From Eledone cirrhosa (lineage: Eukaryota): a stretch of 64,000 bases of DNA. The position numbers and the translations under genes were made by a program. The notes beneath the pieces are model-generated. The model had not been told where the DNA came from, searched no databases, and saw only the letters and a list, made by a program, of their open reading frames with translations. Of this stretch, positions 1,938 through 49,500 are shown piece by piece. The stretch lies in assembly GCA_964016885.1 (NCBI GenBank), contig OZ024746.1, positions 58,218,001 through 58,282,000 of the forward strand, given 5' to 3'. Position 1 is the stretch's first letter. Each line of letters starts with the position of its first letter.

Positions 1938-4900
1938 GATTTCTTTATTAACCACAAGTGTTTACATAAAGTAGACATTAAGGACAGTACAGTACAGGAC
2001 TGCCGTTAGGTAACGATGGTCTACCCTATCGAAGGCTTTCGACTGATCTAAATTGATCAAAGACCCACCCGAGCCAGGTTCCCTAGCTACCCTCTCTACG
2101 ATGTATCGCATGAGGTGGAGGTTGTCGTGGATGGATCTGTCGGGAATGGCGCATGTCTGTGTCTCTCCCACCAGACCACCAACGACAAGCGCCAACCTCT
2201 TTGCTAGCACCTTGGCCAAAATCTTGATCTCTGTGTTTAGCAGTCCATCCCTCGATCCGGCCCGCCACTGCCCCTGAACAATTGAGCGAAGTGTATCTGC
2301 AAAGCTTCACACATTTGCCCGGGATCGAGTAGCATGCGCACGTCGTGGTCCACCAAAGACCGGATCGTGGCTTTGTTGCCACGAAGCGCCTCTGCCACTC
2401 GGGCACATTGAACGGCTTTCGTCCCCTCGTGTCTGAGAGCACGCACCCTAGCTCTGACAACGCAGCCTTCGTGGTTTGCATTGAAGAATTGGTCAAGGGC
2501 CAATTTCGCCGCAAATACGTCGGTCGCGATGCCTTTGCTAAGCGCCTCGTCTAATTTTCTAACTAATACTCCCTCTGCTCTATTTTTCTCTATTACTAAA
2601 GGCTTACTAATCCTAATGGACTCTATTCTAATTGCTCTTTTAAGAGCAAACCACCACTTGTTGTTGACGATGGCCCCCGTCAACGTCCGCTTAAGTAGCT
2701 CGCTAATCCGGTTTCTGTAGGCCTTGAGCGCTGGTAAGGATGCGTTTAGCTTCCAGTAGCCGGGTCCTCGTCTATGAATCCTATCTAAGTCAAGCACACA
2801 GATCACGAATTTGTGGTCCGTGTAGCTGACTATCTTGAATTGTGGACAGCCTATGCTAGACCTATCTATTTCCCTAAAAAATACTCTATCTAGATATGAT
2901 CTGGATGACCCTATGCGATTTGTCCATATCCACATTGGTACATTCGGGAAATCCAATCGGTACCTATCAGTCATTTCAAAACGCCACCTCTATCCGCTGA
3001 TCCCACACAATCCCAGCGTGCATCTAAGATCCCGTTCCAGTCGCCCACTAACACTAAAGAGCGGGACGTTCCAAGAAAGGTCTCTAGCCGGAAGAAATCA
3101 GGCCGCCCTGCTCCTGTCGTGGCATGGACGGCCACTAGCCTGAAAGCTTGCCCGTCTCCGCTGGTCACGTCCAGCACCACCATCTTACCTTCTGGGTCCA
3201 GGAAGATGGCCCGTATGGCGAGATCCAAACCTCTCCGAAAAAGCTCAGCAACTCCTCCCCCGATCCAGGAAAGCTGGGAGATGCTTACACATCGTAGCCG
3301 CCGAAAATTGCTGCGAAGACCCGTGCTTCGGAGATTCTGGTCTCGCTGATGGCCACTACATCTATGTTTAGTGACCTGAGGTCGTTGAGCAGGTGGCCCT
3401 GCTTCCATGACGACCGCAAGCCACGCGCATTTATGCTGCCTATTCTGAGTGAGGTCATGTTGAAATGGAGTGGAAAAGATGGGAAAGACCACTTACCTTA
3501 CTTCTCGTTGAGGAAGGATGGTTTCTCCATCCTTTTCACTGCTTGTGGCCTCCTCAGGAAGGATGTCCTTAGAAATCCTCCTGGAGAGTGTTTGTCGGAA
3601 GTCTCCGATGTCTTTGGGGAATTTTTGTTTTAGTGTCATGTACGTTTTCTGTGTGATGCGAGTGATTTGTATGTGTGGAGGTGGTGTGAACTTTTGGGTT
3701 GTTGTGTAGTCTTTTTCTGTGATGCTGGTATTGTGTTGGATGTAGTGTAATAATTGGTTGTTGTTCAAATGTAATGCTGTTTAGTGTGTATCGTTTTGGT
3801 TGTTTTGTTTTGTTTGCGTTTGTTGTGGATTTGTTTATGTTTCGCTTTTTGGTGACTTTTGTGGTGTTGGTGATGGTGGTGTTGGGGTTAATGATGGTGA
3901 TAGTGTTGGTGTTTGTATTGATGGGGTTGGTGATGCTGGTGTGGTTGGTGGCATATCTGTCCTAACTTTTTTGTTTGATAGTTTATTTGTTTCCCTCTGT
4001 ATTTTGTTTTTGGAGGGGGAGGGAAGAGAATTTTTTTCTTTTTTGGTTTCCTTTTTTTCTTTTTTCCTGACACCGTTTCCCACTCCTCGTCGTCACAATC
4101 TGTGTCCAGTTGTGATAGGCTGGGGAGTGGAAAATCCTCCCAAGGCGTTGGTTTGTGTTGTAGCGTGGTGGATGGTGTAGGCGCTGGTGCTAGTTCTGGC
4201 GCGTTGTGTGGTGGTGGTGTTGGTTTTGCTACTGTTGCTGGGGTTGTTGCTGTTACAGTTGCTTCTGTTGTTGCTGCTACAGTTGTTGCTGCCATCTCTG
4301 CTGCTGGTGGTGTTGATGGTTGAGTCTCTGGTGTGGGTAAGAGAGGTGGCCTCAACCTTTTAGCCTGAGGGCAGAAAGCCCTTAGGTGGGCTCCTTCACC
4401 ACAAACGACACACCTAGGCCTTCAGCCCTCGACGATTACGGTGAGGTGGCTGCCGTCAGTGAGGTCTATTACTTCTGGGATCTCCTCAATGCTTTTTTTG
4501 GTCCGCTTGTATCAGGAGCTCCATCCCTGATCCGGACAAGTTCTCCTGCTTTTCTTTCGCTATTTCGATTATCTTGGTGTTGGCTTCGATGCCGACGAGG
4601 ACGGCAGCTATTAGTCAGGGAATTTCGATGGCCGGTGGAACGTGGGCCACTACGAGTCTCTGGCCACAATAGCTTGGGACGAGTGTGAAGTCCTCACTTC
4701 TTAATGGGGCCATGGAGTGTACTCTAGCCTCCTGTGGTGTTTCAAAGAACATGTCCACGGTTCCATATTTTTGCCCACGTCTGATGTGGATTTTTTTTGC
4801 CCTCACATGTCCCAATGCTTTTTGGATTTGGGACTCGGATGCCCGTTCCACTCGACGCGATTTTATATTAATTGTTCGATAAGACACGGTGCATAAGCGC

Positions 4901-12745: not shown

Positions 12746-12808
<63 letters not shown>
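12746..12808. repeat. (AAT)21 tract, tail/target of T1
   Basis: Seen directly; abuts the T1 3' end. Confidence 0.95.
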
Positions 12809-12810
<2 letters not shown>

Positions 12811-13072
12811 TTTCTTTATTAACCACAAGGGTTTACATAAAGTAGACATTAAGGACAGTGCAGAACAATGGAGGACGGTACAAATGGGCATTTCTGCGTG
12901 TAAAAAAAAAAAAAAACAGAGGATGTAACAAAAATAACAATGAAAATAACAATGAAAAATTCCCCAATAGGGGGGAGACTTCGGAGGGACATTTGTGGAG
13001 AAAGCCCAGTGAAAAGCCACAATGACCCTGACCACCAAGGCAAGTGCCCTCTCCCAGTTTTCCACCTTTAGT

Positions 13073-16000
13073 TTACAGATATATACTCAGAGTCGGCCCA
13101 TTCACTCGGGCCATTCTTGCTTCTCTCACCCATCTTTCAACAAAATGCTGGGAAGAGAGCACTTCCCTCTCTACTCTGATTTTCCTTTTCAAATGAAATT
13201 TGAAAAAGTCAATCAGAGCATCACCGAAGAGGTAAGTGCTCGTCTTCAGCCCTTTCAAACGTGTCCACCATACTATCTCTTTCGCCATGGCCACCAGACA
13301 GATAAAAACTGCCTGCCCTTCCCGGCTAAAGGAGGAGGGCGGGGCAATCCTCACGATGGCCTCAGATGATAGCTGGATCCGTCCTAAACGCGACAGCAGG
13401 TGTTCGACATAAACCCACAAGTCAGCAATTTTCGGACACTGGACGAGTGCGTGCAGGACGGTTTCGTCGCCCTGCGCGCATCTCGGACATGCCCGACTGA
13501 CGGCACCTCCATGCCTGTAGAGTTTATCCCGAACTGGCAAGGCTCCTCGGTAGCACTGCCAGGCCAGAGATTTCTGGAAGTTGTCCATAGGCCCTGGCCC
13601 GAAAGTTCTTCCGAAGAGATTGGCTAGTTGATTTTCGTCGACGCCTAGAGTTTCCCCAAGTACGTCGTCGCTCTTCCCCTCCACTAATCCTCTATAGAAC
13701 GCCGAGGTGGAGTTTCCACCGATCACATTGCCCGATTGGTCGAGGGCTGTGAGCGCCTGAAGACATTCCAGTCTCCAGGCGCTCCCTCTCGGTCTTCGCT
13801 TGACCCAGGACTGCAGCTCCGTCAAGGAAACGAGCTGGGGAAAAACGCGTCTAGCAAACGGCGACCACACGTGATCACCGTCGAGGAAGAGGTGGAGATG
13901 TCGTAGCCTGAGCGCGTGCCTGCGCATCATCAGCCACGGCATGCCCAGCCCCCCACGTAGCGGGTGTTGACAACAGATGGACCGCCTGACCATCGGAGCG
14001 CGTCCCTTCCACAAAAAGCGAAAGAGCAAACGCTCCAGCGCAGTCAGGCGAGGCTTAGGACAAGGTACGACGGTCAGGCGGTAGCAGATGACGGACGCGA
14101 TGTACGCGTTAGCCACCTCCGCTCGACCTTTCAGGGATAGCTTCCTCTCGGCCCATTTCTGGGTGAGAGAAGCCACCCTGCTCGTCACCTCGTCCCAGTT
14201 TTTGTCCGTCTGGAGGTCCGGACCGAACCAGACCCCTAGCAATTTAACCGGTCCGTCCGTCCAGCGTCCGACGACGCTGTTGGACGGCATGGACCTGCCT
14301 CTCCAGGTGCCGAGCTGCAGGCCCACTGACTTTTCCTGGTTGATCATTGCTCCTGTCACCGCTTCGTATTCTCTTAGTGTAGTGCCGATCGCCTCGATGT
14401 GTTTGGCGTTCGACACCACTACGGTGACATCGTCCGCATATGCTGACACGGATCTTCCGCATCCTAGTTCGCGCGGGACTCCCCTCAACGTCTCCAGTTT
14501 GTGCAGTAATGGCTCGAGAGTCAATACGTACAAGAGGGACGAGAGGGGACATCCTTGGCGGACCGAGCGCATGATGTTGAACGGTTCCGACAGGTGACCG
14601 TTCACTCTCACCACAGAGCAGATGTCGCTGTGCATGGCAGCGATCCAGCCTCTGAAGACGGGCCCAAAGCCAGCCGCCCTCAGGACTGCCGCTAGGTAAC
14701 GATGGTCGACCCTATCGAAAGCTTTCGACTGATCTAAATTGATCAAGGACCCACCCGTGCCAGGTTCCCTAGCTACCCTCTCTACGATGTATCGCATGAG
14801 GTGGAGGTTGTCGTGGATGGATCTGTCGGGAATGGCGCATGTCTGCGCCTCTCCCACCAGACCACCAACGACAAGCGCCAACCTCTTTGCTAGCACCTTG
14901 GCCAAAATCTTAAACTCTGTGTTTAGCAGAGTTATGGGCCGGAAATTGTCTATGTTATCCCCCTTGTTCGGATCCTTTCTCAGCAGTGCCACCGCTCCTC
15001 GGCTCACAGAACTGGGAATTCTCCCGTTCTGTTGCCAGTTGCAGTAGACGTCCGCCAAGAGGCCTCCGAACAAGTCTGGCATCTGTACGTAAAGTTCATA
15101 GGGCAGACCATCCAAACCAGGCGATTTACCCCTTGTGCAGCCAGTCATTGCCTCCCGTACTTCAGCGGCTGTTATCGGCTTTTCGCAACACCTCGCCTCA
15201 GTGGCCGAGAGCCGCGGCAGTCCGTCGAGGTAGACACTAAAGTCCATCCCTCTACCCGGCCCCCCGCTGCCCCCGAACAGCTGAGCGAAGTGTCGCTGAA
15301 AAGCTTCACACATTTGCCCGGGATCGAGTAGCATGCGCCCGTCGTGGTCCACCAAAGACCGGATCGTGGCATTGTTGCCACGACGCGCCTCCGCCACTCG
15401 GGCCCATTGAACGGCTTTCGTCCCCTCGTGTCTGAGAGCACGCACCCTAGCTCTGACAACGCAGCCTTCGTGCTTTGCATTGAAGAATTGGTCAAGGGCC
15501 AATTTCGCCGCAAGCACGTCGGTCGCAATGCCTTTGCTAAGCGCCTCGTCTAATTTTCTCACTAGTTCTCCCTCTGCTCTATTTTTCTCTATTGCTAAAG
15601 CCTTACTAAACCTAATCGATTCTATTCTAATCGCTCTTTTCAGAGCAAACCACCACTTGTTGTTGACGATGGCCCCCGTCAACGCCCGCTTAACTAGTTC
15701 GCTAATCCGGTCTCTGTAGGCCTTGCGCGCTGGTAAGGAGGCGTTTAGCTTCCAGTAGCCGGGTCCTCGTCTATGAAGCCTATCTAAGTCAAGCACACAG
15801 GTCACGAATTTGTGGTCCGTGTAGCTGACTATCTTGAATTGTGGACAGCCTATGCTAGACCTATCTATTTCCCTACAAAATACTCTATCTAGATATGATC
15901 TGGATGACCCTATGCGGTTTGTCCAAGTCCACATTGGCACATTCGGGAAATCCAATCGGTACCTGTCAGACAGTTCAAAACGCCTGAGCAGGTTGGTGAG

Positions 16001-16492
16001 GCTCTTGCACCCTCCACCCCTATCCGCTAATCCCACACAGTCCCAGCGTGCATCTAAGATCCCGTTCCAGTCGCCCACTAACACTAAAGAGCGGGACGTT
16101 CCAAGAAAGGTCTCCAGACGCCGGAAGAAATCAGGCCGCCCTGCTCCTGTCGGGACATAGACGGCCACTAGCCTGAAAGCTTGCCCGTCTCCGCTGGTCA
16201 CGTCCAGCACCACCAGCTTACCCTCTGGGTCCAGGAAGATGGCCCGTATGGCGAGATCCAAACCTCTCCGAAAAAGCACAGCAACTCCTCCACCCGATCC
16301 AGGACGGCTGGGAGATGCGTACACATCGTAGCCGCCGAAGATCGGTGCGAAGGCCCGTGCTTCGGAGATTCTGGTCTCGCTGATGGCCACTACATCTATG
16401 TTTAGTGACCTGAGGTCGTTGAGCAGGTGACCCTGCTTCCATGACGACCCCAAGCCACGCGCATTTATGCTGCCTATTCTGAGTGAGGTCAT
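13073..16492 (-). CDS. T1 ORF2: AP endonuclease, reverse transcriptase and C-terminal Cys-rich region (1139 aa)
   Basis: APE motifs SINARG, SET, GDWN, SYLDR, TDH; RT motifs KSPGLDG, FRPITLLN, DQSKAFDRVDH, RQGCPLS, YADD; C-terminal CPRC..ETVLHALVQC. Confidence 0.96.
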   Translation of the reverse strand: MTSLRIGSINARGLGSSWKQGHLLNDLRSLNIDVVAISETRISEARAFAPIFGGYDVYASPSRPGSGGGVAVLFRRGLDLAIRAIFLDPEGKLVVLDVTSGDGQAFRLVAVYVPTGAGRPDFFRRLETFLGTSRSLVLVGDWNGILDARWDCVGLADRGGGCKSLTNLLRRFELSDRYRLDFPNVPMWTWTNRIGSSRSYLDRVFCREIDRSSIGCPQFKIVSYTDHKFVTCVLDLDRLHRRGPGYWKLNASLPARKAYRDRISELVKRALTGAIVNNKWWFALKRAIRIESIRFSKALAIEKNRAEGELVRKLDEALSKGIATDVLAAKLALDQFFNAKHEGCVVRARVRALRHEGTKAVQWARVAEARRGNNATIRSLVDHDGRMLLDPGQMCEAFQRHFAQLFGGSGGPGRGMDFSVYLDGLPRLSATEARCCEKPITAAEVREAMTGCTRGKSPGLDGLPYELYVQMPDLFGGLLADVYCNWQQNGRIPSSVSRGAVALLRKDPNKGDNIDNFRPITLLNTEFKILAKVLAKRLALVVGGLVGEAQTCAIPDRSIHDNLHLMRYIVERVAREPGTGGSLINLDQSKAFDRVDHRYLAAVLRAAGFGPVFRGWIAAMHSDICSVVRVNGHLSEPFNIMRSVRQGCPLSSLLYVLTLEPLLHKLETLRGVPRELGCGRSVSAYADDVTVVVSNAKHIEAIGTTLREYEAVTGAMINQEKSVGLQLGTWRGRSMPSNSVVGRWTDGPVKLLGVWFGPDLQTDKNWDEVTSRVASLTQKWAERKLSLKGRAEVANAYIASVICYRLTVVPCPKPRLTALERLLFRFLWKGRAPMVRRSICCQHPLRGGLGMPWLMMRRHALRLRHLHLFLDGDHVWSPFARRVFPQLVSLTELQSWVKRRPRGSAWRLECLQALTALDQSGNVIGGNSTSAFYRGLVEGKSDDVLGETLGVDENQLANLFGRTFGPGPMDNFQKSLAWQCYRGALPVRDKLYRHGGAVSRACPRCAQGDETVLHALVQCPKIADLWVYVEHLLSRLGRIQLSSEAIVRIAPPSSFSREGQAVFICLVAMAKEIVWWTRLKGLKTSTYLFGDALIDFFKFHLKRKIRVEREVLSSQHFVERWVREARMARVNGPTLSIYL

Positions 16493-16527
16493 GTTTAAAA
16501 TAGAGTGGAAAAGATGGGAAAGACCAC

Positions 16528-18621
16528 TTACCGTACTTTTGGTAGAGGAGGGATGGTTTTTACATCCCTTTTCACTTGATCGTCTGGTGAAGGGACCGTT
16601 GAATCGTCCCTTCGGCTGGTCGTTGGCTCTTCTAAGAGAATGTCTGAGTATACTCTTCGATTGATGGTTCCTCCTAGGTCCCTGAAATCACCAACTGCGT
16701 TGGGGAATTTCGTTTTAATATTTGTGTATTGTTTCTGTGCTATTTTTAGCAGTCTTATGTTAGTTGGCGTTTTGATTGGTGCTGGTATTATGTAGTCCTG
16801 TTGTGAAATGTCTGTGTGTTCAATTATGTAAGTCATTAGTTTCTTGTTGTGTGTATTTATTGCCGTGCATTTGTTTTTCTGGGGGTGGGGTGTGGTTCTG
16901 CTATTTTCTTGTCGTTGTTGCTGGGTGTGTGTGTTTTGTTGTTGTGTTTGCGATGTTGGTGCTTGTGGTGGTGGTGTTGAAGGTGTTGTTGGCGGTGGGG
17001 TTGTCGCCGGTGGTGATGGTGGTGCTGGTGTGGGTGGTGATGGTGTTGGTGGTGTTGCTGCTGTGGGTCTCTTTGCAGTAGACTTTACCCTTTTCTCATT
17101 TCTTTCCTCCCTTTTCAAAGGCGACGATGCGCTGCTTCTGCGTTTGTGCCTTCTTGCGACCTTTTGCCATCCCTCTCCCACCTCACACTCCATGTCTGAT
17201 TCTGTAAGGTCGGGGAGGGGTACCAGCTCCACTCTTTCACTTGTTGTTGTTGGTGATGTTTGCACTGGAGTCTCTGTTGCAGCTGCATTTGGTATTGCTG
17301 TTGTTGTTGTTAATATTTCCACTGCTGCTGCTGTCTTTGATTTCCGTGGAGTGGGTATGGGTGCCACGGACCTATCGTTCCTGGTTGCCGCTTGTCCTGT
17401 TGCTGGTAGCCGTGGAGCCGGATTCGGAAGGAGGGGGGTTTTCTCCTTTCTCAGGGTCTTCTCGTTGCAGAAGGCCCTGAGGTGAGTCTTCGATCCACAG
17501 CGAAAGCATTTCGGGCGTTTGCCCTCAACACTTATGGGCAGTTGAGTGCCGTTATCGAAGTCTATCACATCCGGGATAGCTTCGATGCACTCATGGTTGG
17601 TTTGGATTAGCATCTCAATGGAGGAGCCGACCCAATCTTCTCTTACTTTTTTCTGTACTTGCAGTACAGTTGTTTTGTCCTCGATTCCGACGAGGACAGA
17701 CGCGGCCAGCCAAGAAGGGGTCATTCCGGGGGGGACGTGGGTCAGTTTGACCCTCACAATTTTTTGCCCGCAGTAGGAGGGCACCAACACCATTTCCTCG
17801 CTCCTTAGGGTCACTACTGATTGGGCCTTTGCCTCCTGGGGTGTGGCAAAAAGTACGTCTACGGTGGCGTATTTTTTGCCTCGGGTGATGTGCGTTTTCC
17901 TCTGCCACACAGACCCCAAGGCTTTTTGTATTTGGGCCTCTGTGGCTCTTTCCACCCTACGGGATTTTGTACTTACTGTACGGTACGTGACCGTACAGTG
18001 CTCTTGGGTTTCGAAAAAATTTTTCGCTGCCTTGCAGATTGCTCGGTGTCCGTTCTTTGTCACCATCTTCTTCGCTTCCTCTAATTCCTCATTTGTTATG
18101 AGGATTGTTTCCAAGTTTTTCGCAATACCTGCAAATGAGATTGGTTTTTCTCTGCTGTTGTTGTTGTCGTCAGAGCTGCTGGTACTTTTGTTGCTGCAGG
18201 TACTACGACTACTGCCTCCGCCGCTGTTGCTGTGGTTGTTGTTGGTGTTGCTGCTGCTAATGCTGTTGTTGTTTATGCTGCTGGTGATGCTGTTGCGGCT
18301 GCTACTGTTGTTTTCATTGTCACTGTTGCTGTTGTTATTACGGCTGCTACTGCTATTATTCCTGACGTCAGACGAATGAACTGGGTTTTCGTATTTCCCG
18401 CACACCTGTTTCGTCGCTGTCGTCGTCGTCGTGGAGAAACCTTGCACGCTTTGCACGAGACTTTTCTTTTCTTTCGTCACTTGCGAAAGAGAAGGGAGGG
18501 AGAGAGACACATTTAAAGAAGGGAGGGAGAGAGACAATCTTCTCTCTGCTGTAGTGATGATTGAGGAAGAAGAAGACGGAATGAGTGGGAGTGACGTATG
18601 AAATTTATTTTTGGTAGCCAT
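16528..18621 (-). CDS. T1 ORF1: nucleic-acid-binding protein with one CCHC zinc knuckle (697 aa)
   Basis: CFRCGSKTHLRAFC = CX2CX4HX4C; Asn/Ser- and Pro/Thr/Gln-rich linkers; homologous to ORF1 of the other copies. Confidence 0.9.
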   Translation of the reverse strand: MATKNKFHTSLPLIPSSSSSIITTAERRLSLSLPSLNVSLSLPSLSQVTKEKKSLVQSVQGFSTTTTTATKQVCGKYENPVHSSDVRNNSSSSRNNNSNSDNENNSSSRNSITSSINNNSISSSNTNNNHSNSGGGSSRSTCSNKSTSSSDDNNNSREKPISFAGIAKNLETILITNEELEEAKKMVTKNGHRAICKAAKNFFETQEHCTVTYRTVSTKSRRVERATEAQIQKALGSVWQRKTHITRGKKYATVDVLFATPQEAKAQSVVTLRSEEMVLVPSYCGQKIVRVKLTHVPPGMTPSWLAASVLVGIEDKTTVLQVQKKVREDWVGSSIEMLIQTNHECIEAIPDVIDFDNGTQLPISVEGKRPKCFRCGSKTHLRAFCNEKTLRKEKTPLLPNPAPRLPATGQAATRNDRSVAPIPTPRKSKTAAAVEILTTTTAIPNAAATETPVQTSPTTTSERVELVPLPDLTESDMECEVGEGWQKVARRHKRRSSASSPLKREERNEKRVKSTAKRPTAATPPTPSPPTPAPPSPPATTPPPTTPSTPPPQAPTSQTQQQNTHTQQQRQENSRTTPHPQKNKCTAINTHNKKLMTYIIEHTDISQQDYIIPAPIKTPTNIRLLKIAQKQYTNIKTKFPNAVGDFRDLGGTINRRVYSDILLEEPTTSRRDDSTVPSPDDQVKRDVKTIPPLPKVR

Positions 18622-18858
18622 GTTTTTTTGTTTAAAATGAAATTTTGGCTACAAAACCCCAATAACTGGTTATTTAACCCCGAAGGGCCAAATAACGGAC
18701 AGAAAGACCCCTCTCACGAGGAGGAGGGTGTCTTTATCAACAATTTGGTTCAAGTTTTAAACAATTTACAATTGTTTTAACGGTTAAAAATTACTATACC
18801 TTACAGAGCCGAGCCTCCGTCAACCATGGCATTCAATAATAATAATAATAATAATAAT

Positions 18859-21800
18859 GTTTTCTTTATTAACCACAAGGGTTTACATAACGCAGACATT
18901 AAGGACAGTACAGGACAATACAGGACGGTACAGATGGGCATTTCTGCGTGTAAAAAACAAAAACAGAGGATGTAACAAAAAATAACAATGACAAATTCCC
19001 CAATAGGGGGGAGACTTCGGAGGGACATTTGTGGAGAAAGCCCAGTAGAAGGCCACAGTGACCCTGACCACCAAGGCAAGTGCCCTCTCCCAGTTTTCCA
19101 CCTTTAATTTACAGATACATACTCAGAGTAGGCCCATTCACTCGGGCCATTCTTGCTTCTCTCACCCATCTTTCAACAAAATGCTGGGAAGAGAGCACTT
19201 CCCTCTCTACTCTTATTTTCCTTTTCAAATCAAATTTGAAAAAGTCAATCAAGGCATCACGAAGAGGTAAGTGCTCGTCTTCAGCCCTTTCAAACGTGTC
19301 CACCATACTATCTCTTTTGCCATGGCCACCAGACAGATAAAAACTGCCTGCCCTTGCCGGCTAAATGAAGAGAGTGGAGCAATCCTCACGATGGACTCAT
19401 ATGATAGCCGGATCCGTCCTACAGGCGACAACAGGTGTTCGACATAAACCCACAAGGTAGCAATTTTCGGACACTGGACGAGTGCGTGCAGGACGGTTTC
19501 GTCGCCCTGCGCGCATCTCGGACAAGCCCGGCTGACGGCACCTCCATGCCTGTAGAGTTTATCTCGAACTGGCGAGGCTCCTCGGTAGCACTGCCAGGCG
19601 AGAGATTTCTGGAAGTTGTCCATAGGCCCCGGCCCGAAAGTTCTTCCGAAGAGATTGGCTAGTTGATTTTCGTCGACGCCTAGAGTTTCCACAAGTACGT
19701 CGTCGCTATTCCCCTCCACTAATCCTCTATAGAACGCCGAGATGGAGTTTCCACCGATCACATTGCCCGATTGGCCAAGGGCTGTGAGCGCCTGAAGACA
19801 TTCCAGTCTCCAAGCGCTCCCTCTCGGTCTTCGCTTGACCCACGACTGCAGCTTCGTGAAGGAAACGAGTTGGGGAAATACGTGTCTAACAAACGTCGAC
19901 CACATCTGATCACCGTCGAGGAAGAGGTGGAGATGTCGTACCTGAGCCCGTGTCTGCGCATCATCAGCCACGGCATGCCCAGCCCTTTACGTAGCGGGTG
20001 TTGACAACAGATGGACCGCCTGACCATCGGAGCGCGTCCCTTCCAGAAAAAGCGAAAGAGCAAACGCTCCAGCGCAATCAGGCGGGGCTTAGGACAAGGT
20101 ACGACGGTCAGGCGGTAGCAGATAACGGACGCGATGTACGCGTTAGCCACCTCCGCTCGACCTTTCAGGGATAGCTTCCTCTCGGCCTATTTCTGGGTGA
20201 GAGAAGCCACCCTGCTCGTCACCTCGTCCAAGTTTTTGTCCGTCTGGAGGCCCGGACCAAAACAGACCCCAAGCAATTTAACAGGCCCGTCCAGCGTCTG
20301 AAGATGCTGTTGGACGGCATGGACCTGCCTCTCCAGGTGCCGAGCTGCAGGCCCACTGACTTTTCCTGGTTGATCATTGCCCCTGTCACCGCTTCGTATT
20401 CTCTTAGTGTAGTGCCGATCGCCTCGATGTGTTTGGCGTTCGACACCACTACGGTGACATCGTGCGCATATGCTGACACGGATCTTCCGCATCCTAGTTC
20501 GCGCGGGACGCCCCTCAACGTCTCCAGTTTGTGCAGTAATGACTCGAGAGTCAATACGTACAAGATGGACGAGCGCAAGATGTTGAACGGTTCCGAAAGG
20601 TGACCGTTCACTCTCACTACAGAGCAGATGTCGCTGTGCATGCACAGCGATCCAGCCTCTGAAGACGGGCCCAAAGCCAGCCTCCCTCGGGACTGCCACT
20701 AGGTAACGATGGTCGACCCTATCGAAAGCTTTCGAGTGATCTAAATTGATCAAGGACCCACCCGTGCCAGGTTCCCTAGCTACCCTCTCTATACGATGTA
20801 TCGCATGAAGTGGAGGTTGTCGTGGATGGATCTCCCACCAGCCCACCAACGACAAACGCCAACCTCTTTGCTAGCACCTTGGCCAAAATCTTGAACTTAT
20901 GGGCCTGAAATTATCTATGATATCCCCGTTGTTCGGATCCTTTCTCAGCAGTGCCACCGCACCACGGCTCACAGAGCTGGGAATTCTCCCGTTGTGTTGC
21001 CAGTTGCTGTAAACGTCCGCCAAGAGGCCTCCGAACAAGTCTGGCATCTGTACGTAAAGTTCATAGGGCAGACCATCCAAAACAGGCGATTTACCCCTTG
21101 TGCAGCCAGTCATTGCCTCCCGTACTTCAGCGGCTGTTATCGGCTTTTCACAACACTCCGACTCAATGGCCGAGAGCGGCGGCAGTCCGTCGAGGTAGAC
21201 ACTAAAGTCCATCCCTCGATCATGCCCGCCGCTGCCCCCGAACAGTTGAGCGAAGTGTCGCTGAAAAGCTTCACACATTTGCCCGGGATCGAGTAGCATG
21301 CGCCCGTCGTGGTCCACCAAAGACCGGTTCGTGGCTTTGTTGCCACGTAGCGCCTCCGCCACTCGGGCCCATTGAACGGCTTTCGTCCCCTCGTGTCTGA
21401 GAGCACGCACCCTAGCTCTGACCACGCAGCCTTCGTGCTTTGCATTGAAGAATTGTTCAAGGTCCAATTTCGCCGGAAGTACGTCGGTCGCGATGCCTTT
21501 GCTAAGCGCCTCGTCTCATTTTCTAACTAGTTCTCCCCCTGCTCTATTTTTGTCTATAGCTAAAGCCTTACTAAACCTAATGGACTCTATTCTAATCGCT
21601 CTTTTCAGAACAAACCACCACTTGTTGTTGACGATGGCCTCCGACAACGCCCGCTTAACTAGTTCGCTAATCCGGTCTCTGTAGGCCTTACGCGCTGGTA
21701 AGCACGCGTTTAGCTTCCATTAGCCGGGTCCTCGTGTATGAAGACTATCTAAGTCAAGCACACAGATCACGAATTTGTGGTCGGGCAGCTGACTATCTTG

Positions 21801-24663
21801 AATTGTGGACAGCCTATGCTAGACCTATCTATTTCCCTACAAAATACTCTATCTAGATATGATCTGGATGACCCTATGCGATTTTCCAAGTCCACATTGG
21901 CAAATTCGGGAAATCCAATCGGTACATGTCAGACAGTTCAAAACGCCTGAGCAGACTGGTGAGGCTCTTGCACCCTCCTCCCTTATCCGCTAATCTCTAC
22001 ACAGTCCCAGCGTGCATCTTACATCCCGTTCCAGTCGCCCACTAACACTAAAGAGCGGGTCGTTCCAAGAAAGGTCTCCAGACGCCGGAAGAAATCAGGC
22101 CGCCCTGCTCCTCTCGGGGCATAGACGGCCACTAACCTGAAAGATTGCCCGTCTCCGCTGGTCACGTCCAGCACCACCAACTTACCTTCTGGGTCCAGGA
22201 AGATGGCCCGTATGGCAAGATCCAAACCTCTCCGAAAAAGCACAGCAACTCCTCCCCCCCCCGATCCCGGACGGCTGGGAGATGCGTACACATCGTAGCC
22301 GCCGAAGATCGGTGCGAAAGCCTGTGCTTCGGAGATTCTGGTCTCGCTGATGGCCACTACATCTATGTTTAGTGACCTGAGGTCGTTGAGCAGGTGGCCC
22401 TGCTTCCATGGCGACCCCAAGCCACGCGCATTTATGCTGCCTATTCTGAGTGAGGTCATGTTGAAAAGGAGTGGAAACGATGGGAAAGACCACTTACCTT
22501 ACTTCTCGTAGGGGAAGGACGGCTATTCCATCCTTTTCACTGCTTGTGGCCTCCTCAGGAAGGATATCCTTATAAATCCTCCTGGAGAGTGCTTGTCGGA
22601 AGTCTCTGATGTCTTTGGGGAATTTTTATTTTAGTGTAATGTACGTTTTCTGTGTGATGCGAGTGATTTGTATGTGTGGAGGTGGTGTGAATTTTGGGGT
22701 TGTTGTGTAGTCTTTTTCTGTGATGCTGGTGTTGTGTTGGATGTAGTGTAATAAATGCTTGTTGTCAAATTTAATGCTGTGTAGTGTGTATCGTTTTGGT
22801 TGTTTTGTTTTGTTTGCGTTTGTTGTAGGTTTGTTTCTGTTTCGCATTTTGGTGACATTTGTGTTGTAGGTGATGGTGGTGTTGGAGTTAATGATGGTGA
22901 TGGTGTTGGTGATGCTGGTGTGGATGGTGGCATATCTGTCCTAACTTTTTTGTTTCTTAGTTTATTTGTTTCCCTCTGTATTTTGTTTTTGGAGGGGGAA
23001 GGAAGAGAATTTTTTCTTTTTTGGCTTCTTTTTTTTTTTCCGGATATCGTTTCCCACTCCTCGACGTCACAATCTGTCTCCAGTTGTGATAGGCTGGGGA
23101 GTGGAAAATCCTCCACAGAGCGTTAGTTTTGGTTGTGGTGTGGTGGATGGTGTAGGCGCTGGTGCTAGTTGTGAAGCGTTGGGTGGTGGTGGTGTTCGTT
23201 TTGCTACTGTTGCTGGGGTTGTTGCTGTTATAGTTGCTTTTGTTGTTGCTGCTACAGTTGTTGCTGCCATCTCTGCTACTGGTGGTGTTGATGGTTGTGT
23301 CACTGGGGTGGGTAGGAGAGGTGGCCTCAACCTTTTAGCCTGAGGGCAGAAAGCCGTTAGGTGGGTTCCTTCACCACAAACGACACACCTAGGTCTTCTA
23401 CCCTCGACAATTACCGTGAGGTGGCTGCCGTCAGTGAGGTCTATTACCTCTGGGATCTCCTCAATGCTTTTTTGGTCCGCTTGGATCAGGAGCTCCATCC
23501 CAGATCCGGACCAGTTTTCCTGCTTTTCTTTTGCTATTGCTATTATTTTCGTGTTGGCTTCGATGCCGGCGAGGACAGCCGTTATTAGCCAGGGAATTTC
23601 GATGGGCGGTGGAACGTGGGTCACCCTGATCTTTACGAGTCTCTGGCCACAATAGCTTGGGACGAGTGTGAAGTCGTCACTTTTTAATGGGGCCATGGAG
23701 TGTTCTCTAGCCTCCTCTGGTGTTTCAAAGAACACACACACGGTTCCATACTTTTGCCCACGTCTGATGTGGGTGTTTCTTGCCCACACATGTCCCAAAG
23801 CTTTTTGGATTTGGGACTCGGATGCCCGTTCCACTCGGCGCGATTTTACATTTATTGTTCTATACGACACGGTGCATAGGCGCCGATGCTCCATTTAATT
23901 AGGTGGTGGGGGGGGGGGGGGTGAGGATGACCCTGTACCCATCTTTCTTTACCATTTGTTTGGCATTTTCTAAATCTTCCTGAGTTACCGTGAAAGCTTC
24001 GAAATGTTTTGCTACTCTGGCGAAACTGAGGGGGGTTTTTATAATGTTATTGTTGTTGTTGTTGTTGTTGCTATCGTTATTTGTGTTAATATTAATTTTA
24101 GTTTCAGTTGTGATGGTGGTGACGTCAGTCGTCTTTGGTGCGGAAGAGTCCATTTTGCTTGATTTCATTTCGACATCACGAGTTAATTAATTTTTTTCTT
24201 CTTTTGTTTCTGTTGTCGCGGTGGTGGTGGGGGTGGTGGTTGTCGCGGTGGTGGTGGTGGTGGAGGCTTTAACACCTGCAGTCATTGGTAATGGCGGGAA
24301 ATGAATGTCTGCCTGAGACAAATTTAAAATATTGCTACTGCTTATATTTTTTTTTGTGTTGGCAAACGTAGTAACATTTACAATGGTGGTGTCGGTGTGA
24401 GGTGTTATTTTCTGAGGAAGGCTTTCAGCTGCTTCGTGCAGAGGAAAATTAGCCATTTTTTTCAAATAAATTTTTGGATAATAATAAAAGTTAAAATTTT
24501 GGGCACAAGGCCCCAATCTTTTTGGGTGTCCTTTTCGGAAAACAATGTATGTGTGCTTATAAACAGTTAACAATAAAATTTTCCATAAATGGCAATTGTT
24601 AACAAACGGAAATAACAATCCTTTGCGGAGCTCACGATGATACGATTTACTACGTAGGTCGCC
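18859..24663 (-). mobile_element. Full-length degenerate Tx1 copy T2 (ORF1 type B)
   Basis: ORF1 ~22494-24456 and ORF2 19109-22459 broken by stops, frameshifts and small deletions; (AAT)8 at 18835-18858 and (AAT)18 at 24664-24717. Confidence 0.93.
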
Positions 24664-27900: not shown

Positions 27901-28379
27901 CCTTCTCTATCCACTAATCCCACACAATCCCAGCGTGCATCTAAGATCCCGTTCCAGTCGCCCACTAACACTAAAGAGCGGGACGTTCCAAGAAAGGTCT
28001 CCAGACGCCGGAAGAAATCAGGCCGCCCTGCTCATGGCGGGGCATAGACGGCCACTAACCTGAAAGCTTGCCTGTCTCCGCTGGTCACGTCCAGCACCAC
28101 CAACTTACCTTCTGGGTCCAGGAAGATGGCCCGTATGGCAAGATCCAAACCTCTCCGAAAAAGCACAGCAACTCCTCCCCCCGATCCCGGACGGCTGGGA
28201 GATGCGTACACATCGTAGCCGCCGAAGATCGGTGCGAAAGCCTGTGCTTCGGAGATTCTGGTCTCGCTGATGGCCACTACATCTATGTGTAGTGACCTGA
28301 GGTCGTTGAGCAGGTGGCCCTGCTTCCATGACGACCCCAAGCCACGCGCATTTATGCTGCCTATTCTGAGTGAGGTCAT
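24960..28379 (-). pseudogene. T3 ORF2 (APE-RT): frameshift at ~28035, in-frame stops at 26187 and 25269
   Basis: ORF pieces 28032-28379, 26187-27971, 25269-26177, 24960-25241 are colinear with T1 ORF2. Confidence 0.92.
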
Positions 28380-28413
28380 GTTGAAAAGGAGTGGAAAAGA
28401 TGGGAAAGACCAC

Positions 28414-30374
28414 TTACCTTACTTCTCGTAGGGGAAGAACGGCTTTTCCATCCTTTTCACTGCTTGTGGCCTCCTCAGGAAGGATGTCCTTATAAATCCT
28501 CCTGGAGAGTGCTTGTCGGAAGTCTCCGATGTCTTTGGGGAATTTTTGTTTTAGTGTCATGTACTTTTTCTGTGTGATGCGAGTGATTTGTATGTGTGGA
28601 GGTGGTGTGAATTTTGGGGTTGTTGTGTAGTCTTTTTCTGTGATGCTGGTGTTGTGTTGGATGTAGTGTAATAATTGCTTGTTGTTCAAATTTAATGCTG
28701 TGTAGTGTGCATCGTTTTGGTTGTTTTGTTTTGTTTGCGTTTGTTGTGTGTTTGTTTCTGTTTCGCATTTTGGTGACTTTTGTGGTGTTGTAGTTAATGA
28801 TGGTGATCGTGTTGGTGTTTGGGTTGATGGGGTTGGTGATGCTGGTGTGGATGGTGGCATATCTGTCCTAACTTTTTTGTTTCTTAGTTTATTTGTTTCC
28901 CTCTGTATTTTGTTTTTGGAGGGGGAAGGAAGAGAATTTTTTCTTTTTTGGTTTCTTTTTTTTCTTCCGGATATCGTTTCCCACTCCTCGTCGTCACAAT
29001 CTGTCTCCAGTTGTGATAGGCCGGGGAGTGGAAAATCCTCCACAGCCGTTAGTTTTGGTTGTGGTGGATGGTGTAGGCGCTGGTGCTAGTTGTGAAGCGT
29101 TGGGTGGTGGTGGTGTTGGTTTTGCTACTGTTGCTGGGGTTGTTGCTGTTATAGTTGCTTTTGTTGTTGCTGCTACAGTTGTTGCTGCCATCTCTGCTAC
29201 TGGTGGTGTTGATGGTTGTGTCACTGGGGTGGGTAGGAGAGGTGGCCTCAACCTTTTAGCCTGAGGGCAGAAAGCCGTTAGGTGGGTTCCTTCACCACAA
29301 ACGACACACCTAGGTCTTCTGCCCTCGACAATTACCGTGAGGTGGCTGCCGTCAGTGAGGTCTATTACCTCTGGGATCTCCTCAATGCTTTTTTGGTCCG
29401 CTTGGATCAGGAGCTCCATCCCAGATCCGGACCAGTTTTACTGCTTTTCTTTTGCTATTGCTATTATTTTCGTGTTGGCTTCGATGCCGGCGAGGACAGC
29501 CGCTATTAGCCAGGGAATTCCGATGGCCGGTGGAACGTGTGTCACCCTGATCTTTACGAGTCTCTGGCCACAATAGCTTGGGACGAGTGTGAAGTCGTCA
29601 CTTTTTAATGGGGCCATGGAGTGTTCTCTAGCCTCCTCTGGTGTTTCAAAGAACACATCCACGGTTCCATACTTTTGCCCACGTCTGATGTGGGTTTTTC
29701 TTGCCCACACATGTCCCAAAACTTTTTGGATTTGGGACTCGGATGCCCGTTCCACTCGACGCGATTTTACATTTATTGTTCTATCCGACACGGTGCATAG
29801 TCGCCGATGCTCCATTTTATTAGGTGGGGGGGGGGGTGAGGATGACCCTGTACCCATCTTTCTTTACCATTTGTTTGGCATTTTCTAAATCTTCCTGAGT
29901 TACCGTGAAAGCTTCGAATTGTTTTGCTACTCTGGCAAAACTGAGGGGGGTTTTTATAATGTTATTGTTGTTGTTGTTGTTGTTGTTGCTATCGTTATTT
30001 GTGTTAATATTAATTTTAGTTTCAGTTGTGGTGGTGGTGACGTCAGTCGTCTTTGGTGCGGAAGAGTCCATTTTGCTTGATTTCATTTCGACATCACGAG
30101 TTAATTTATTTTTTTCTTCTTTTGTTTCTGTTGTCGCGGTGGTGGTGGGGGTGGTGGTTGTCGCGGTGGTGGTGGTGGTGGAGGCTTTAACACCTGCAGT
30201 CATTGGTAATGGCGGGAAATGAATGTCTGCCTGAGACAAATTTAAAATATTGCTACTGCTTATATTTTTTTTTGTGTTGGCAAACGTAGTAACATTTACA
30301 ATGGTGGTGTCGGTGTGAGGTGTTATTTTCTGAGGAAGGCTTTCAGCTGCTTCGTGCAGAGGAAAATTAGCCAT
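28414..30374 (-). pseudogene. T3 ORF1 (type B), disrupted
   Basis: Pieces 29820-30374, 29438-29857, 28994-29419 (CVVCGEGTHLTAFC knuckle), 28414-29043. Confidence 0.85.
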
Positions 30375-38800: not shown

Positions 38801-41800
38801 TGCGCGCCGGGAAAGACGCGTTCAGCTTAGTAACAAGGCCCTTGTCTATGAAGTCTGTCTATGTCGATCTCACAGATCACAAATTTGTGGTCTGTGTAGT
38901 CGACTATTTTAAATTGTGGACAACTTATACTAGCCTTATCTAATTCTCTGCAGAATACTCTATCGAGATACGATCTGGATGATCCGATGTGATTTGTCCA
39001 CATTGGCACATTCGGGTGATCCAGTCGATACCTGTCAGACAGTTCAAAACGTCTGAACATGTTGGTGAGGCTCTTGCACCCTCCTCCCCTATACACTAGC
39101 CCCACACAATCCCAGCGTGCATCCAAGATACCGTTCCAGTCGCCCACTAACACCAAAGAGCGGGACGTTCCAAGAAAGGTCTCTAGACGTCTGAAGAAAT
39201 CTGGCCGTCCTGCCTCTGATGGGGCGTAGACGGCTACTAGCCTGAAAGCATTGCCTTCGCTGCCGGTCACGTCCAGCACCACCGACTTACCTTCTGGGTC
39301 TGGGAATATGGCCCGTATCGAGAGATCCAAGCCTCTCCGAAAAAGGACGGCAACGCCTCCCCCCCCCCCCGATCCTGGACGGGTGGGAGACATCGTATAC
39401 AACGTAGCCGCCGAAGATCGGTGCGAAGGCTTGTGCTTCGGAGATTCTGGTTTTACTGATTGCCACCACATCTATGTTTAGTGACCTGAGGTCGTTGAGC
39501 AGGTGACCCTGCTTCCAAGATGACCCCAGACCACGTGCATTTATACTGCCTATTCTGAGTACGGCCCTATTGGATGAGAAACGGGGCAAGTGAGAAAAGG
39601 TCAATTACCTTGATCGTGTGGTGAAGGGACAGTAGAACCGTCCCTTTCGCTGGTCATGGGTGTTTCCAAGAGGATGTCAGTGTATAGCCTCTTGGCAACC
39701 GACCCCCTGAAGTCTCCAACTGCGTTGAGGAATTTTGGTTTAAAGATTTGTACTGTTCTATTGAGATTTCGATGATGCTTATGTATGTCGAGAGAGTTCT
39801 TGGTGCTGGTGAGGTGTAGTAGTTTTTTTCTCTGATGTATGTGTGCTGTTTTATATATTGTATGAGTTCTTTTTTTGCCATGTTTATGGTTGTGTACATT
39901 TTGGGGGGAGGGGTGATTTTGTTGCCGTTTTCTTCTTGTTGCTGTTTGGTGTGTGTGTCTTGTTGTGTTTGCGTTGTTGGTGATTTTGGTGATGCTGGTG
40001 GTGGTGTGGTTGTTGTTGTCAATGGTGCTTGTGGTGATGATGGTGGTGGTCTTGCTGCAAGTTTCCTTGCTGCCTTTACCCCTCTTTGTATGCCTTCGCT
40101 TTTGGAGGGTGAATCTAAGGTTTTTTTTCTTTTTTCTTTTTTTTTTGTGGCAGACCGTTTGCCACTTCACTCCTGCTTCAAACTCCATATCGGATTTGTG
40201 GCGTCTGGGAGGGGTATGTGCTCCACGGCTGTTGGTGGTGGTAGTGGAGCCCTCTTCGGCAATTTTGTTGCTGGTGTAGCTACTTCAAATGTAGCTATTG
40301 GTGTTGCCGCCACTGATGTGGCTGCTTTAGTTGTCCGTGGCCTTGGTACGGGTGCTACGGACGTTGCCCTCCTACTCACCGTGGAAGGGACTTCTTCGTT
40401 TGTTGCCTGCCATGCTCTTGGTAGCAGCGGACCAGGTATTGGAAGGAGAGAGGCCTTCTTCGCTGTCTTCTGCGGGCAAAAGGCCCTGAGGTGACCCTTC
40501 GATCCACAGAGATAACATTTTCGCCGTCTTCCTTCTACACTTATACGGAGTTGGAGTCCTTCCTCGATGTCTATGATATTGGGAATAGCGTCGATACATT
40601 CCTGGTCAGTTTGTATAAGCATTTGCATGCCTATACCTGACCAGTTCTCTATCCCTATTTTTTCTACTTGCAGCATGGTCGTCCTTTTCTCGATTCCAGC
40701 AAGGACAGACGCGGCCAGCCAAGGTATGGGCACGTCGGGTGGGTCCTGGGTCACTTTGACCCTCACAATTTTCTGCCCGCAGTAGGAGGGCACCAAGAAT
40801 ATCTTCTCACTCTTTAGGGTTTCCAAAGAGTGAAACTTTGCTTCCTGGCGGGTGGCGAAAAGTACGTCTACTGTGGCGTACTTTCTGCTTTGGGTGATGT
40901 GGGTTTTGCGTGCCCAAACGCACCCCAAGGCCTTTTGGATTTGAGCCTCCGTGGCTCTCTCCACCCGATGTGAGATTTTGCTTACGGTGCGGTATGTCAC
41001 CGTCCGTAGCTGCTGGTCCTTGAAAAAATCGAGTGGAGGTTTGAGGGAGACTCTATTGGCGCTTCTTGTCACCATGGCCCTTGCGACTGCCATCTCCTCC
41101 TCTGTGACTAACACTGTCTCGATATTTCGGGCGACACCTGCAAAATAAATGGTCCCTTTTTCAGCAGCACCAGTATTGCTGCCACTACTGGTCTTACTGG
41201 TGGTACTGAGATCGCTATTACAGGTATCGGTGTCATTGTTGTTGTTTTCGTTGGTACAGTTGTTGGTGTTCTTGTTGTTGTTTTCGTTGATACTGTTGCT
41301 GTTGTTACTGTTATTGTGTGTTGTTATTATTGTTGTTTTTGTTGATACTGTTCTTACTATTAATGTTGTTGTGGCTGTTGTTATAGTCATTGTTATTGTC
41401 GTTCTCAACCTTACCGCTTTATTTTTGTTATTGTCGTTCTCGACTTTACCGCTGTTATTTTTGTTGTTGCTGTTGTTATTGATGGTGTTGTTGTTGGTGT
41501 TGTTGGTGTTATTGTTGGTGTTGTTTGTGTTAGAAATATTTGTTAATTTTAAATCTGTAACAATCGTTTTTTCCTTTGTAATATTTTCGTTTATATTTAC
41601 CTCCGCTGGAACGCTGTCTTGTTGACATGCTGATAAAGTCTCCCTCTCTCTGTGTTGTCTGACAGCGCTCTCTCTCTGTTTCTTGTGATATCCATGTTGA
41701 AATTTTTTCAATAATAATATTCTTTTATTATTAGCCAAACACATTGAGAAAATATTATGACAGCACATGACCACAGAGGGCAGGAAAAATCGGTAAGATG

Positions 41801-46520: not shown

Positions 46521-49500
46521 TTGGGATGGACACACGCGTATAACTTGCTGAGTAAGTTCTGTTTAAATTTCTATAGAAATTCTTGTCTGTTAACTTTAAT
46601 TTTTGTACTATTTTGTAGAGGGACTGCCAGGTCAAACTTTGATCTGGTCAGTCTCTCAAAATATTCTACGCCTTTAGGCGAAATAGTTAAACAAATGTTG
46701 AAAAGTTAATATTTTTTTAAATGGCTGAAGCTTCTTCACCAAAATTCAAAGGAGGAAAGGGGAAGATAAACTTACAGCTTCCCCCTGCCACTGTCACAGT
46801 AGCAGAGGTCAAGAAGAAAGGTCAGCCAGAGGAAGAATTTTCTCCAACTGTCAACCGACAACTTGACGTTTCCATGGCAACAACCCAAAGAACAAGCGGC
46901 ACCAGCAACAGCAACAACAACAACAATGCGACGGACGAAAACAACACCAATAACAATAACAACAACAACAAGACCAATAACCGTGACAACAACAACAATG
47001 ATAACAACAACACCACCAACGACAACAACAACACAAACAAAAAAAATGTCTCCTTCGCCGAGACGACAAGGAAAACCCTCGACTATCTGCCAGTAGATAT
47101 AACCAAAGCGAAGGAGCTACTGGCAGATGCCAAAAAATATATAGTGTACGGGGAAAATGGTTCATTCACAATCCATTCCCCGACGGAACTAAAAAGCCAG
47201 AGACTCCTAAACACTGTCATGTTTAGGACAATCTCGAATAAAAGTAAAAAACCAGCTCAACCATCACAGAGTGAGATAGAGCTGGTTTTAAAAGACGTCA
47301 TGAAGGACATCACCTTCATTCAGAAGGATAGACTCTACGGGAGTCTATCCATTCTCATGAAGGACAGGGACACAGCAGTGAAACTGTCCATCAAACCAAT
47401 CACATCCACCGCATACACCTTCTACCCTACGTACATGGGTAGAAGAACACAAAAAATAAAAATCCACACCATCCTGCCGATTATGGACATATGGTGGGTT
47501 TTGACAGGTTTCCTGGATCTGGAGGATGACATGCTGGTGTCCATGGGAAAGGCATCGGGTGACGCGTTCAGTGGAACGAGCCTCGAAATTGTAGTTCAAA
47601 TGAGGCCCGAAAGGATCGCCCCGATCCCTGAACGCGTCATACTGCATGATCTAACCTTCATCAACATTACCGTTGAGGGTAGGCGGCCCTCGTGTTACCT
47701 CTGTCCCCAACTTAATAAGAAAACCCCAATCCTGCCTACACCACCAACAACTGCACAACCAACACAATCACCACAACTACCACTACAAAAACAACCACCA
47801 CAGCTCAAACCAAAACAAAACAATGTCCAACCCATCCTCTCCACTCAAAAAACAAAAACAATTTCCAAAACACCCGCACCGCAAACACAACCCGAAAATA
47901 TTGCCCTCCCCATCCAACGCGGAAGATGACCCTAGTTCGTCGTCAGGCGAGGAGGAGCACTTCCACACAATCAAAAGAAAAAAAAGAAAACACGCCTCAG
48001 ACACACAAATGAAAACAACCCCTCCCCAAAACATAACACTGACACCAACACAAAAGAGCTCACAACAACAGCAAACAAAAAACACCACACAAAAACAAAA
48101 ACATGCAAACACATACATAAACACAAGAAACAAAAAACTGTTAAACATTGTGTACAACAACAATCTAGTAAAAACACAAGGGTCTAACTTCACCCAGGCA
48201 GGGGATTTCCCCCACCTCAAAATGATTAAGGCCCCACAGGACACCTCTAAATCTTTAAAAAACAATTTCAAGGAGGACGTGCGTCCCCCCTGCGTCGGGC
48301 CCATTAACCGCGTCCTCCTAAAAATCTACCCCACCCACTCCCCAAACACCCACACAACTCCAAACTCCCCAACCACACAACACACTGATGCCCCTACACT
48401 TCCACAAACCACCACCCCACCCAACAACCCATCCCCCACCCTAATGGAAATTGTGCAGCCCGATACCCGGGACGCAGAGAGGTAAGTGCCTTTTCTCTTC
48501 ACCACCAACATGGCTATGTTAAGAGTAGGCTGTTTAAATGCGCGTGGCCTGGGCTCAACTTGGAAGCAAGCAATGCTTCTAAATGACCTCAGGTCACAAC
48601 GTATAGATGTGATGGTTATTTGCGAGGCCCGGATCAGCAGCGTGCGACAGCTGGCCCCCACCTTTGATGACTTTGAGATGCACGCATCTCTCTGTCAGCC
48701 CGGAGGTGGGGGTGGAGTTGTCGTTCTGCTGCAAAAACATCTGGGTCTCGCAACACAGATGGTACATTTGGACCCGGAGGGTCGACTAGTGGTTCTGGAC
48801 CTTGGCAGTGGTAAAGGCGGAGCGTTTAGATTGGTAGCCGCCTACGGCCCTTTCGGGTCAATGCGGCCGGACTTCTTCCATCGTTGGAAACTTTTCTAGG
48901 GACGTCCCGCTCCTTGCTATTAGTGGGGGACTGGAATGGTATCCTAAATGCACGCTGGGACTACGTAGGGGCCTGTCCCGATAGAAAGGGGTGTAATAGC
49001 CTCAAAGGGTTAATCGGTCTATTTGACCTGGCCGATAGATATTGACTTGATTTTCCGACTGCGCCAACCTGGACTTGGGCAAATCGTAGCGGATCATCTA
49101 GGTCGTACCTAGATAGGTTATTAGTTAGAATTAAGGATAAGGACTTTTTAAGTTGTGGAAAAATGCGCATGGTTGGCTATTCAGACCACAAGTTAGTGAC
49201 CTGCATGATCAACCTTGACACAACTCAACCGGTTACTGGAAGCTCAACTTGTCCTTACCGGAAAGTAAGGCTTACAGGGTCCGGATTAGCACTTTAGTTA
49301 AGGAGCGGTTGACGGGCGCCATCGTCAACAGCAGGTGGTAAGGATCTCTCAAAAGAGAGATTAGAGTAGTCTCTATAGAATTTAGTAAGGAGTTAGCCTC
49401 AAATAGAAATAGGAAGGAAAGGGAGTTGGTAGATAGTGGAGAAGAGGCAATTAGAAGCGGCGACGTGGCCAGAGTGCTAGCGTCGAGAACGGCCCTGGGC

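Follow-up and report, generated by a model that had tools for sequence, protein, structure and literature searches.

A splice-donor match over the ORF1 stop codon of Tx1-like LINEs in Eledone cirrhosa: candidate intron or rarely spliced U1 docking site?

How the second open reading frame (ORF2) of a bicistronic long interspersed nuclear element (LINE) is expressed has been settled for few elements. A 64,000-nucleotide stretch of the Eledone cirrhosa genome (GenBank assembly GCA_964016885.1, contig OZ024746.1, positions 58,218,001 to 58,282,000; here called the window, to whose positions all coordinates refer) poses this question in a particular form. It contains six copies (T0 to T5) of one two-ORF LINE type, and each copy has a match to the 5' splice donor at the ORF1 stop. 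Is the segment between the ORFs an intron and, if not, what is the donor for? The answer that we favor, if tentatively, is that the junction forms a conserved cassette in which the donor likely docks U1 small nuclear ribonucleoprotein (snRNP) and is seldom spliced. Such a donor-and-hairpin cassette at the ORF1 stop offers a small, mutable target for the question of ORF2 expression.

Donor and hairpin at the end of ORF1

The donor at the ORF1 stop is real. It lies on the sense strand of the element in all six copies and agrees with 7 or 8 of 9 consensus positions, a score that is a crude count of matches to a nine-position consensus; by this count, T0 and T5 have no donor as good anywhere else in the element, and in the other copies the site places among the top two to four. 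In T0 to T3 and T5, the TAA stop codon of ORF1 makes up intron positions +2 to +4 of a phase-2 donor. At the other sense-strand stop codons of the six elements, a donor with at least 7 of 9 matches starting 1 to 6 nucleotides (nt) before the stop was present in 15 of 1,176 cases (1.3%). A first-pass annotation had read the site as the start of an intron joining ORF1 to ORF2, and its donor coordinates, frames and sense-strand placement were all as we found them (Table 1), as was its observation that GTAAGT is kept between divergent ORF1 types (T0 to T3 and T5; T4 has GTAATT). Although every copy does have the donor, the types named there are fewer than they seem: T0 to T3 have one common junction, so that the number of lineages is three, not six. 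In T0, T2 and T3, the main donor is preceded at a distance of 5 nt by a second GTAAG (3501, 22502 and 28422, minus strand), giving tandem donor-like sites.

Compared with T1, ORF2 diverges at 65 of 200 fourfold sites (33%) in T4 and at 116 of 242 (48%) in T5. Given 52% fourfold-site identity, retention of the six free donor positions between T5 and the T1-type junction has a P value of ~0.02; for the retention of 7 of 8 donor positions in T4, P is ~0.2. Since the donor has been kept across three lineages and two phases at these divergences, it is the nucleotide motif that persists, rather than the peptide or the position of the stop, and the donor is probably under selection.

Upstream of the donor, at a distance of 15 to 17 nt, T0 to T4 share a hairpin in which 39 of 40 cells are paired and two pairs differ in both partners; among 500 shuffles, 24 scored as high, slid controls gave 28 to 65%, and RNAalifold recovered the same stem. 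With five related rows, this covariation is suggestive rather than conclusive. The T5 junction has no clear homologue of the hairpin. T0, T2 and T3 belong to one family, while T1 is a chimera that shares the T0-type junction, its ORF1 being T4-like up to ~16576 and followed by a T0-type tail, spacer and ORF2; this suggests that hairpin, donor, spacer and ORF2 may stay together when an element exchanges its ORF1. The crossover near 16576 lies just upstream of the T0-type hairpin, which is why T1 has two hairpins.

Could the likeness to a donor be a by-product, the junction being kept as an RNA structure or as a stop context for termination-reinitiation (the hairpin plus a purine-rich arm that pairs with the pyrimidines following the donor), or through plain inheritance? 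We regard this as doubtful. The hairpin, with its paired cells, double-sided changes and shuffle control, fits such an account, as does a consensus fold that pairs donor bases with the tract; GTAAG, moreover, contains TAA, so that donor and stop are not independent of each other, and only three lineages are at hand. However, the likeness extends over the whole donor consensus and ranks at the top within the element, T4 has kept AGGTAA even though its TAA is not an in-frame stop, and T5 keeps the donor without the hairpin.

The six elements are filed as Tx1-like (L1 clade) on the basis of domain order and microsatellite targeting. ORF2 matches Pfam PF03372, PF00078 and PF13966, that is, an N-terminal APE endonuclease, a reverse transcriptase (RT) and a C-terminal zinc-binding domain, and its top PDB matches are L1 ORF2p. 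In ORF1, whose reading frames were checked via homology of the C-terminal domain, a CCHC knuckle is visible, with a weak Pfam match in T4 only; its Atlas neighbors are of the ZCCHC3 type (RBD/RRM plus CCHC; 0.89 to 0.93), which we treat as a lead only. A Tx1-type ORF1 is known from other work (PMC5203782). Named relatives of the window proteins belong to Octopus sinensis, O. bimaculoides and Argonauta, in keeping with an octopus as host, and none of five window proteins has an entry in the protein cluster collection. The T0 copy has an internal deletion, and T2 is frameshifted. T0 to T4 have (ATT)n at their end or in their flanks, and T5 has (TATC)n on both sides. In 12755-30635, T3, T2 and T1 stand head to tail, near full length and with (ATT)n joints, as expected if the element targets its own tail repeat.

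Table 1. Positions of the LINE features discussed (window coordinates; a slash marks the exon-intron boundary of a donor match)
Feature	Position	Strand	Remarks
T1, full-length Tx1-like LINE	12809..18834	-	Both ORFs intact; flanked by (ATT)n tracts
T1 ORF1	16528..18621	-	697 aa; RRM-like core and CCHC knuckle; terminal Arg-stop
T1 ORF2	13073..16492	-	1139 aa with APE endonuclease, RT and zf-RVT domains; starts with its own ATG (16492)
T1 donor match across ORF1 stop	16526..16534	-	CG/GTAAGT; GT from 16531
T0, T2, T3 donors	3496, 22497, 28417	-	AG/GTAAGT
T4 donor	39608	-	AG/GTAATT
T5 donor	48482	+	AG/GTAAGT
T1 candidate intron	16479..16531	-	53 nt; donor, pyrimidine tract, ORF2 ATG, branch-like motif, first AG in Leu4-Arg5 codons
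T0 junction	3445..3496	-	52 nt, phase 2
T2 junction	22446..22497	-	52 nt, phase 2
T3 junction	28366..28417	-	52 nt, phase 2
T4 junction	39550..39608	-	Donor in phase 1; ORF1 end Gln-Gly-Asn-stop; start codon of ORF2 mutated; sole in-frame AG near the start at +59
T5 junction	48482..48523	+	Donor in phase 2; AAG acceptor after 42 nt; branch-like motif absent; within (TATC)n
ORF2 start context	16487..16495	-	AAC ATG; common to T0-T3 and T5
T0-type hairpin in T1	16549..16569	-	17 nt upstream of T1 donor; 8-pair stem; two double-sided changes across T0-T4
Second hairpin copy in T1, T4-type	16591..16611	-	Upstream of crossover near 16576
T1 3' UTR acceptor-like site	12894..12915	-	T tract, then CAG; AG ends at 12894
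Homologous 3' UTR acceptor-like sites	18944 (T2), 24803 (T3)	-	

The segment between the ORFs as a candidate intron

The first AG downstream of the donor ends at +52 in T0, T2 and T3, at +53 in T1 and at +42 in T5, and joining the donor to it yields Arg and continues the ORF2 frame. For T0 to T3, removal of 52 to 53 nt does therefore fuse ORF1 to ORF2 in frame, just as the first-pass annotation had it. The segment might then be a partly retained intron, a minority of the RNA being spliced to encode a functional ORF1-endonuclease-RT polyprotein, Gag-Pol-like, and the unspliced RNA serving as template. While we consider this unlikely, T0 to T3 present much that agrees with it. The donor lies precisely over the stop; the first AG is CAG and in frame (three AGs fall within 10 nt, two of them in frame); the lack of any AG in between has P values of 0.03 to 0.05 each, which are not independent; and a fusion would lose Met1 to Leu4 but retain Arg5 onward, where the structural match to L1 endonuclease starts. 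Against this, the acceptor AG is part of an Arg codon, and 61 of the 115 Arg codons of ORF2 are AGR.

Is the rest of the segment built like an intron? In all six copies, a pyrimidine tract (18 to 20 of 24 nt; in T1, 20 of 24 at +7 to +30) follows straight after the donor. That it does not adjoin the AG, a caveat raised in the first-pass annotation, is true but not fatal, as a tract at the 3' end is often missing from short introns of flies (reported in part of PMC5762160). The only branch-like match (TRAY) is at -11 in T0 to T3, where it overlaps the ATG, and there is none near the AG in T4 or T5; no copy has a branch-like motif ~15 to 40 nt before the AG, with -11 being marginal rather than impossible, given that branch points of ultra-short fly introns average -14 (PMC5762160). 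The same source sets fly minima at ~35 nt from donor to branch and 15 nt from branch to AG and yet describes spliced introns of 40 to 50 nt, and introns of 53 to 54 nt are reported to be removed from TART antisense RNA (PMC1636488).

The other two lineages are less accommodating. Only in T0 to T3, which are one lineage, is the first AG both a YAG and in frame. The in-frame AAG proposed for T5 is there, frame included, but the resulting 42 nt fall below the ~50-nt sum of the fly minima, and a branch motif is missing. In T4, the donor is indeed in phase 1, as had been proposed; the homologous CAG leads to an immediate stop, the first usable AG is out of frame, and the only in-frame AG near the start, at +59, would remove Leu4-Arg5-Ile6 from the first strand of the endonuclease, which would presumably harm the enzyme. 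PMC13644364 yielded no intron sizes for molluscs. By fly limits, which may not be those of an octopus, splicing thus appears feasible in T0 to T3, doubtful in T5 and inconsistent with the layout of T4.

Inside the would-be intron, the ORF2 start context is as conserved as the donor, which also argues against a fusion (CAACATG in T5, T0, T2 and T3; AAACATG in T1). The remark that ORF2 has its own ATG applies to five of the six copies; T4 reads AGG. A distant ORF2 (P0001, 40% identity) likewise begins with Met directly at the endonuclease.

Traces of splicing in copies, reads and relatives

Were spliced RNA the main source of ORF2 activity, the segment should be missing from most copies. L1 proteins act on their own encoding RNA, and spliced L1 RNAs leave intron-less copies (PMC5860796, in part); a cis preference of LINE proteins is likewise reported (PMC2951350, in part). 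The intron-less single-ORF copies that the first-pass annotation had proposed to look for did not turn up: none of the six copies in the window is precisely intron-less (upper bound, 39%), the stretches deleted within T0 and T5 are not bounded by GT..AG, and the window holds no ORF1-only copy. This template argument, which takes Tx1 to share the cis preference of L1, speaks against a fusion being the usual way to ORF2 but would be compatible with a minor product.

Of seven sequencing runs, none of them recorded as RNA, four were considered, as contigs, over 13000-18700. Run X1 (its RNA type a guess) had zero depth over 15865-16628. The 16478/16532 joint was not among the 15 listed of 2,033 joints, nor was a 53-nt gap among the 12 listed of 136, although such excerpts of contig data cannot show absence. 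One contig of run X6, a run of unspecified type, spans 16466-17877 ungapped and extends just 13 letters beyond the acceptor.

Scans of viral, metagenome and prokaryote DNA gave no relative; three metagenome loci were set aside, as they share the zinc knuckle only. Longer fused proteins were likewise not found, in searches of weak sensitivity, one of which also missed known relatives of 527 to 861 aa. Among 150 listed of 758 ORF1 relatives, none runs on into the endonuclease N-terminus, a further point against the fusion. One of the 150, P0138, also matches ORF2, but at residues 136 to 178, away from the junction; P0062, which has a junction-like string at its end but not the ORF1 C-terminal domain, was rejected; and the N-terminus of P0004 is not ORF1-like. 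P0004, an O. sinensis tectonic-3-like gene model, holds 61 residues of LINE endonuclease (residues 41 to 101, 64% identity), either an exonized piece or an annotation error. Ten relatives have the C-terminal domain, and two of them, P0012 and P0014, end in Gln-Gly-Lys-stop and Glu-Gly-Lys-Ser-stop, aligned with the Gln-Gly-Asn-stop of T4; these ends are compatible with a phase-1 donor and, as protein sequence only, with 7 of the 10 relatives in the model's training set, hint at most at a wider occurrence. Searches of the open-licence PMC and bioRxiv literature listed no spliced ORF1-ORF2 fusion in a LINE.

The donor might instead join a distant acceptor. Six acceptor-like sites were listed for the sequence that follows the donor in T1; the one with the strongest pyrimidine context lies in the 3' untranslated region (UTR) and looks like a textbook acceptor, a site that, like the hairpin, is new relative to the first-pass annotation; its end, at 12894, falls outside the stretch covered by the read contigs. 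With ORF2 removed as a 3.6-kb intron, an ORF1-only RNA would result, comparable to the short gag RNAs of copia-type elements, for which EVADE and BARE1 set a precedent (PMC12786077, in part). The phase-2 join would encode Arg plus 19 residues, and in T1, T2 and T3 the T tract and CAG are followed by this open frame of 19 codons, closed by a stop (TAA, TAA and TGA, respectively) ahead of AATAAA; a donor over the stop would also shift the stop into the last exon. Even so, we think this decidedly unlikely: T4 and T5 have no such YAG site and yet keep the donor, U-rich tails are common, no ORF1-only copy was seen, and the 3' UTRs of T1 to T3 are 93 to 95% identical, so that the acceptor counts as a single occurrence. 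Put more generally, a retained micro-intron over the ORF1 stop, whose splicing yields a Gag-Pol-like fusion (or this ORF1-only RNA) while the spliced RNA is excluded from retrotransposition, seems improbable to us.

Proposed U1 docking at the junction and its setting

What, then, is the donor for? With the motif conserved, the intron-like segment retained in every copy and the hairpin covarying, we lean, with due caution, toward a junction cassette composed of the hairpin, the donor over the ORF1 stop, the pyrimidine tract and the ORF2 start codon. Genomic copies would be made from unspliced RNA, and ORF2 would be translated from its own AUG via termination-reinitiation, as in L1. Hairpins can aid reinitiation, and U1 protects RNA from early cleavage. 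The donor is likely to bind U1; docking of the snRNP would regulate the RNA, most likely by stabilizing it or by shielding the 3.4-kb ORF2 from early cleavage, and would only rarely lead to splicing. Splicing itself may be kept low because the distance is short, the branch site is poor and the tract may pair with the purines that surround the donor; in predicted folds, the tract pairs with sequence at or before the donor. For rat L1, reinitiation without fusion has been reported for ORF2 (PMC2241872, in part).

In favor of the cassette, the acceptor side is not conserved in its outcome between lineages. The first-pass proposal of a spliced fusion does not hold as the normal route to ORF2, given an ATG context kept in five of six copies, no intron-less copy in six and a splicing outcome that differs by lineage. 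Several points nevertheless weigh against rare splicing with U1 docking. It explains the position of the donor exactly over the stop less well than a splicing model does; the small-intron anatomy of T0 to T3 is workable by fly standards; some copies disrupt the long-range pairing that covers the donor; three lineages are few, and 0 of 6 permits up to 39% intron-less copies; and the conserved donor of human L1 has been explained by a DNA factor site, not by U1 (PMC5860796).

That human L1 donor is otherwise the closest parallel: it has been conserved for ~46 million years and is mostly unspliced, with spliced SpIRE copies making up ~2% of full-length L1s, and there, too, spliced RNAs would leave intron-less copies (PMC5860796, in part). 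It lies, however, in the 5' UTR within a RUNX3 site, whereas the donor described here covers the stop of ORF1, and spliced copies did not turn up. The microsatellite-targeting Tx1 LINEs of the Kibi, Koshi and crocodilian groups share the two ORFs, the APE endonuclease and RT, insertion into microsatellites and, putatively, an RRM/CCHC-type ORF1 (PMC4494074, in part), and 13 L1-Tx1 families are listed for Octopus vulgaris (PMC13282606, in part). The targets here, by contrast, are (ATT)n and (TATC)n, and the available portions of these two sources describe no splice signal at the ORF1 stop. In the long terminal repeat (LTR) elements Ogre, EVADE and BARE1, the relative amounts of structural protein and RT are set by splicing, and the intron is kept; LTR particles, however, can choose an unspliced template, and splicing has been shown there, whereas here it is a candidate from sequence (PMC12786077). 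The TART introns are similar in size and are removed from the RNA of a non-LTR element, but they are antisense, noncoding and from fly, with no ORF fusion (PMC1636488); introns have also been reported in L1, Tad and Penelope (PMC1636488), and a TART spacer has been described (PMC5009743).

The meaning of the donor depends on which of these accounts is right. Were the segment spliced, a LINE would be keeping a functional intron despite RNA copying, in conflict with cis preference; a fused or ORF1-only product would make a third expression route for a bicistronic LINE, beside reinitiation and frameshifting; and a donor that only binds U1 would add a small regulatory novelty to an ordinary family of elements.

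Finally, the window holds other repeats. A different non-LTR element at 32393-35777 (plus strand) encodes RT, a C-terminal CCHC and a restriction-like endonuclease motif in two ORFs of 699 and 419 aa, and we take it to resemble Dong-R4. Dong-R4 families are listed for O. vulgaris (PMC13282606, in part). Positions 30808-31415 and 31476-32090 form a direct duplication of ~610 bp (97% identical). An inverted repeat of ~360 bp at 8270-8634 is 92% self-complementary and resembles a miniature inverted-repeat transposable element (MITE). A dispersed ~190-bp repeat, 78 to 91% identical and like a short interspersed nuclear element (SINE) or a MITE, occurs on both strands at 67-237, 6352-6548, 7378-7606, 44910-45099, 45315-45505, 51805-52001, 53763-53983, 54564-54756 and 60151-60336.

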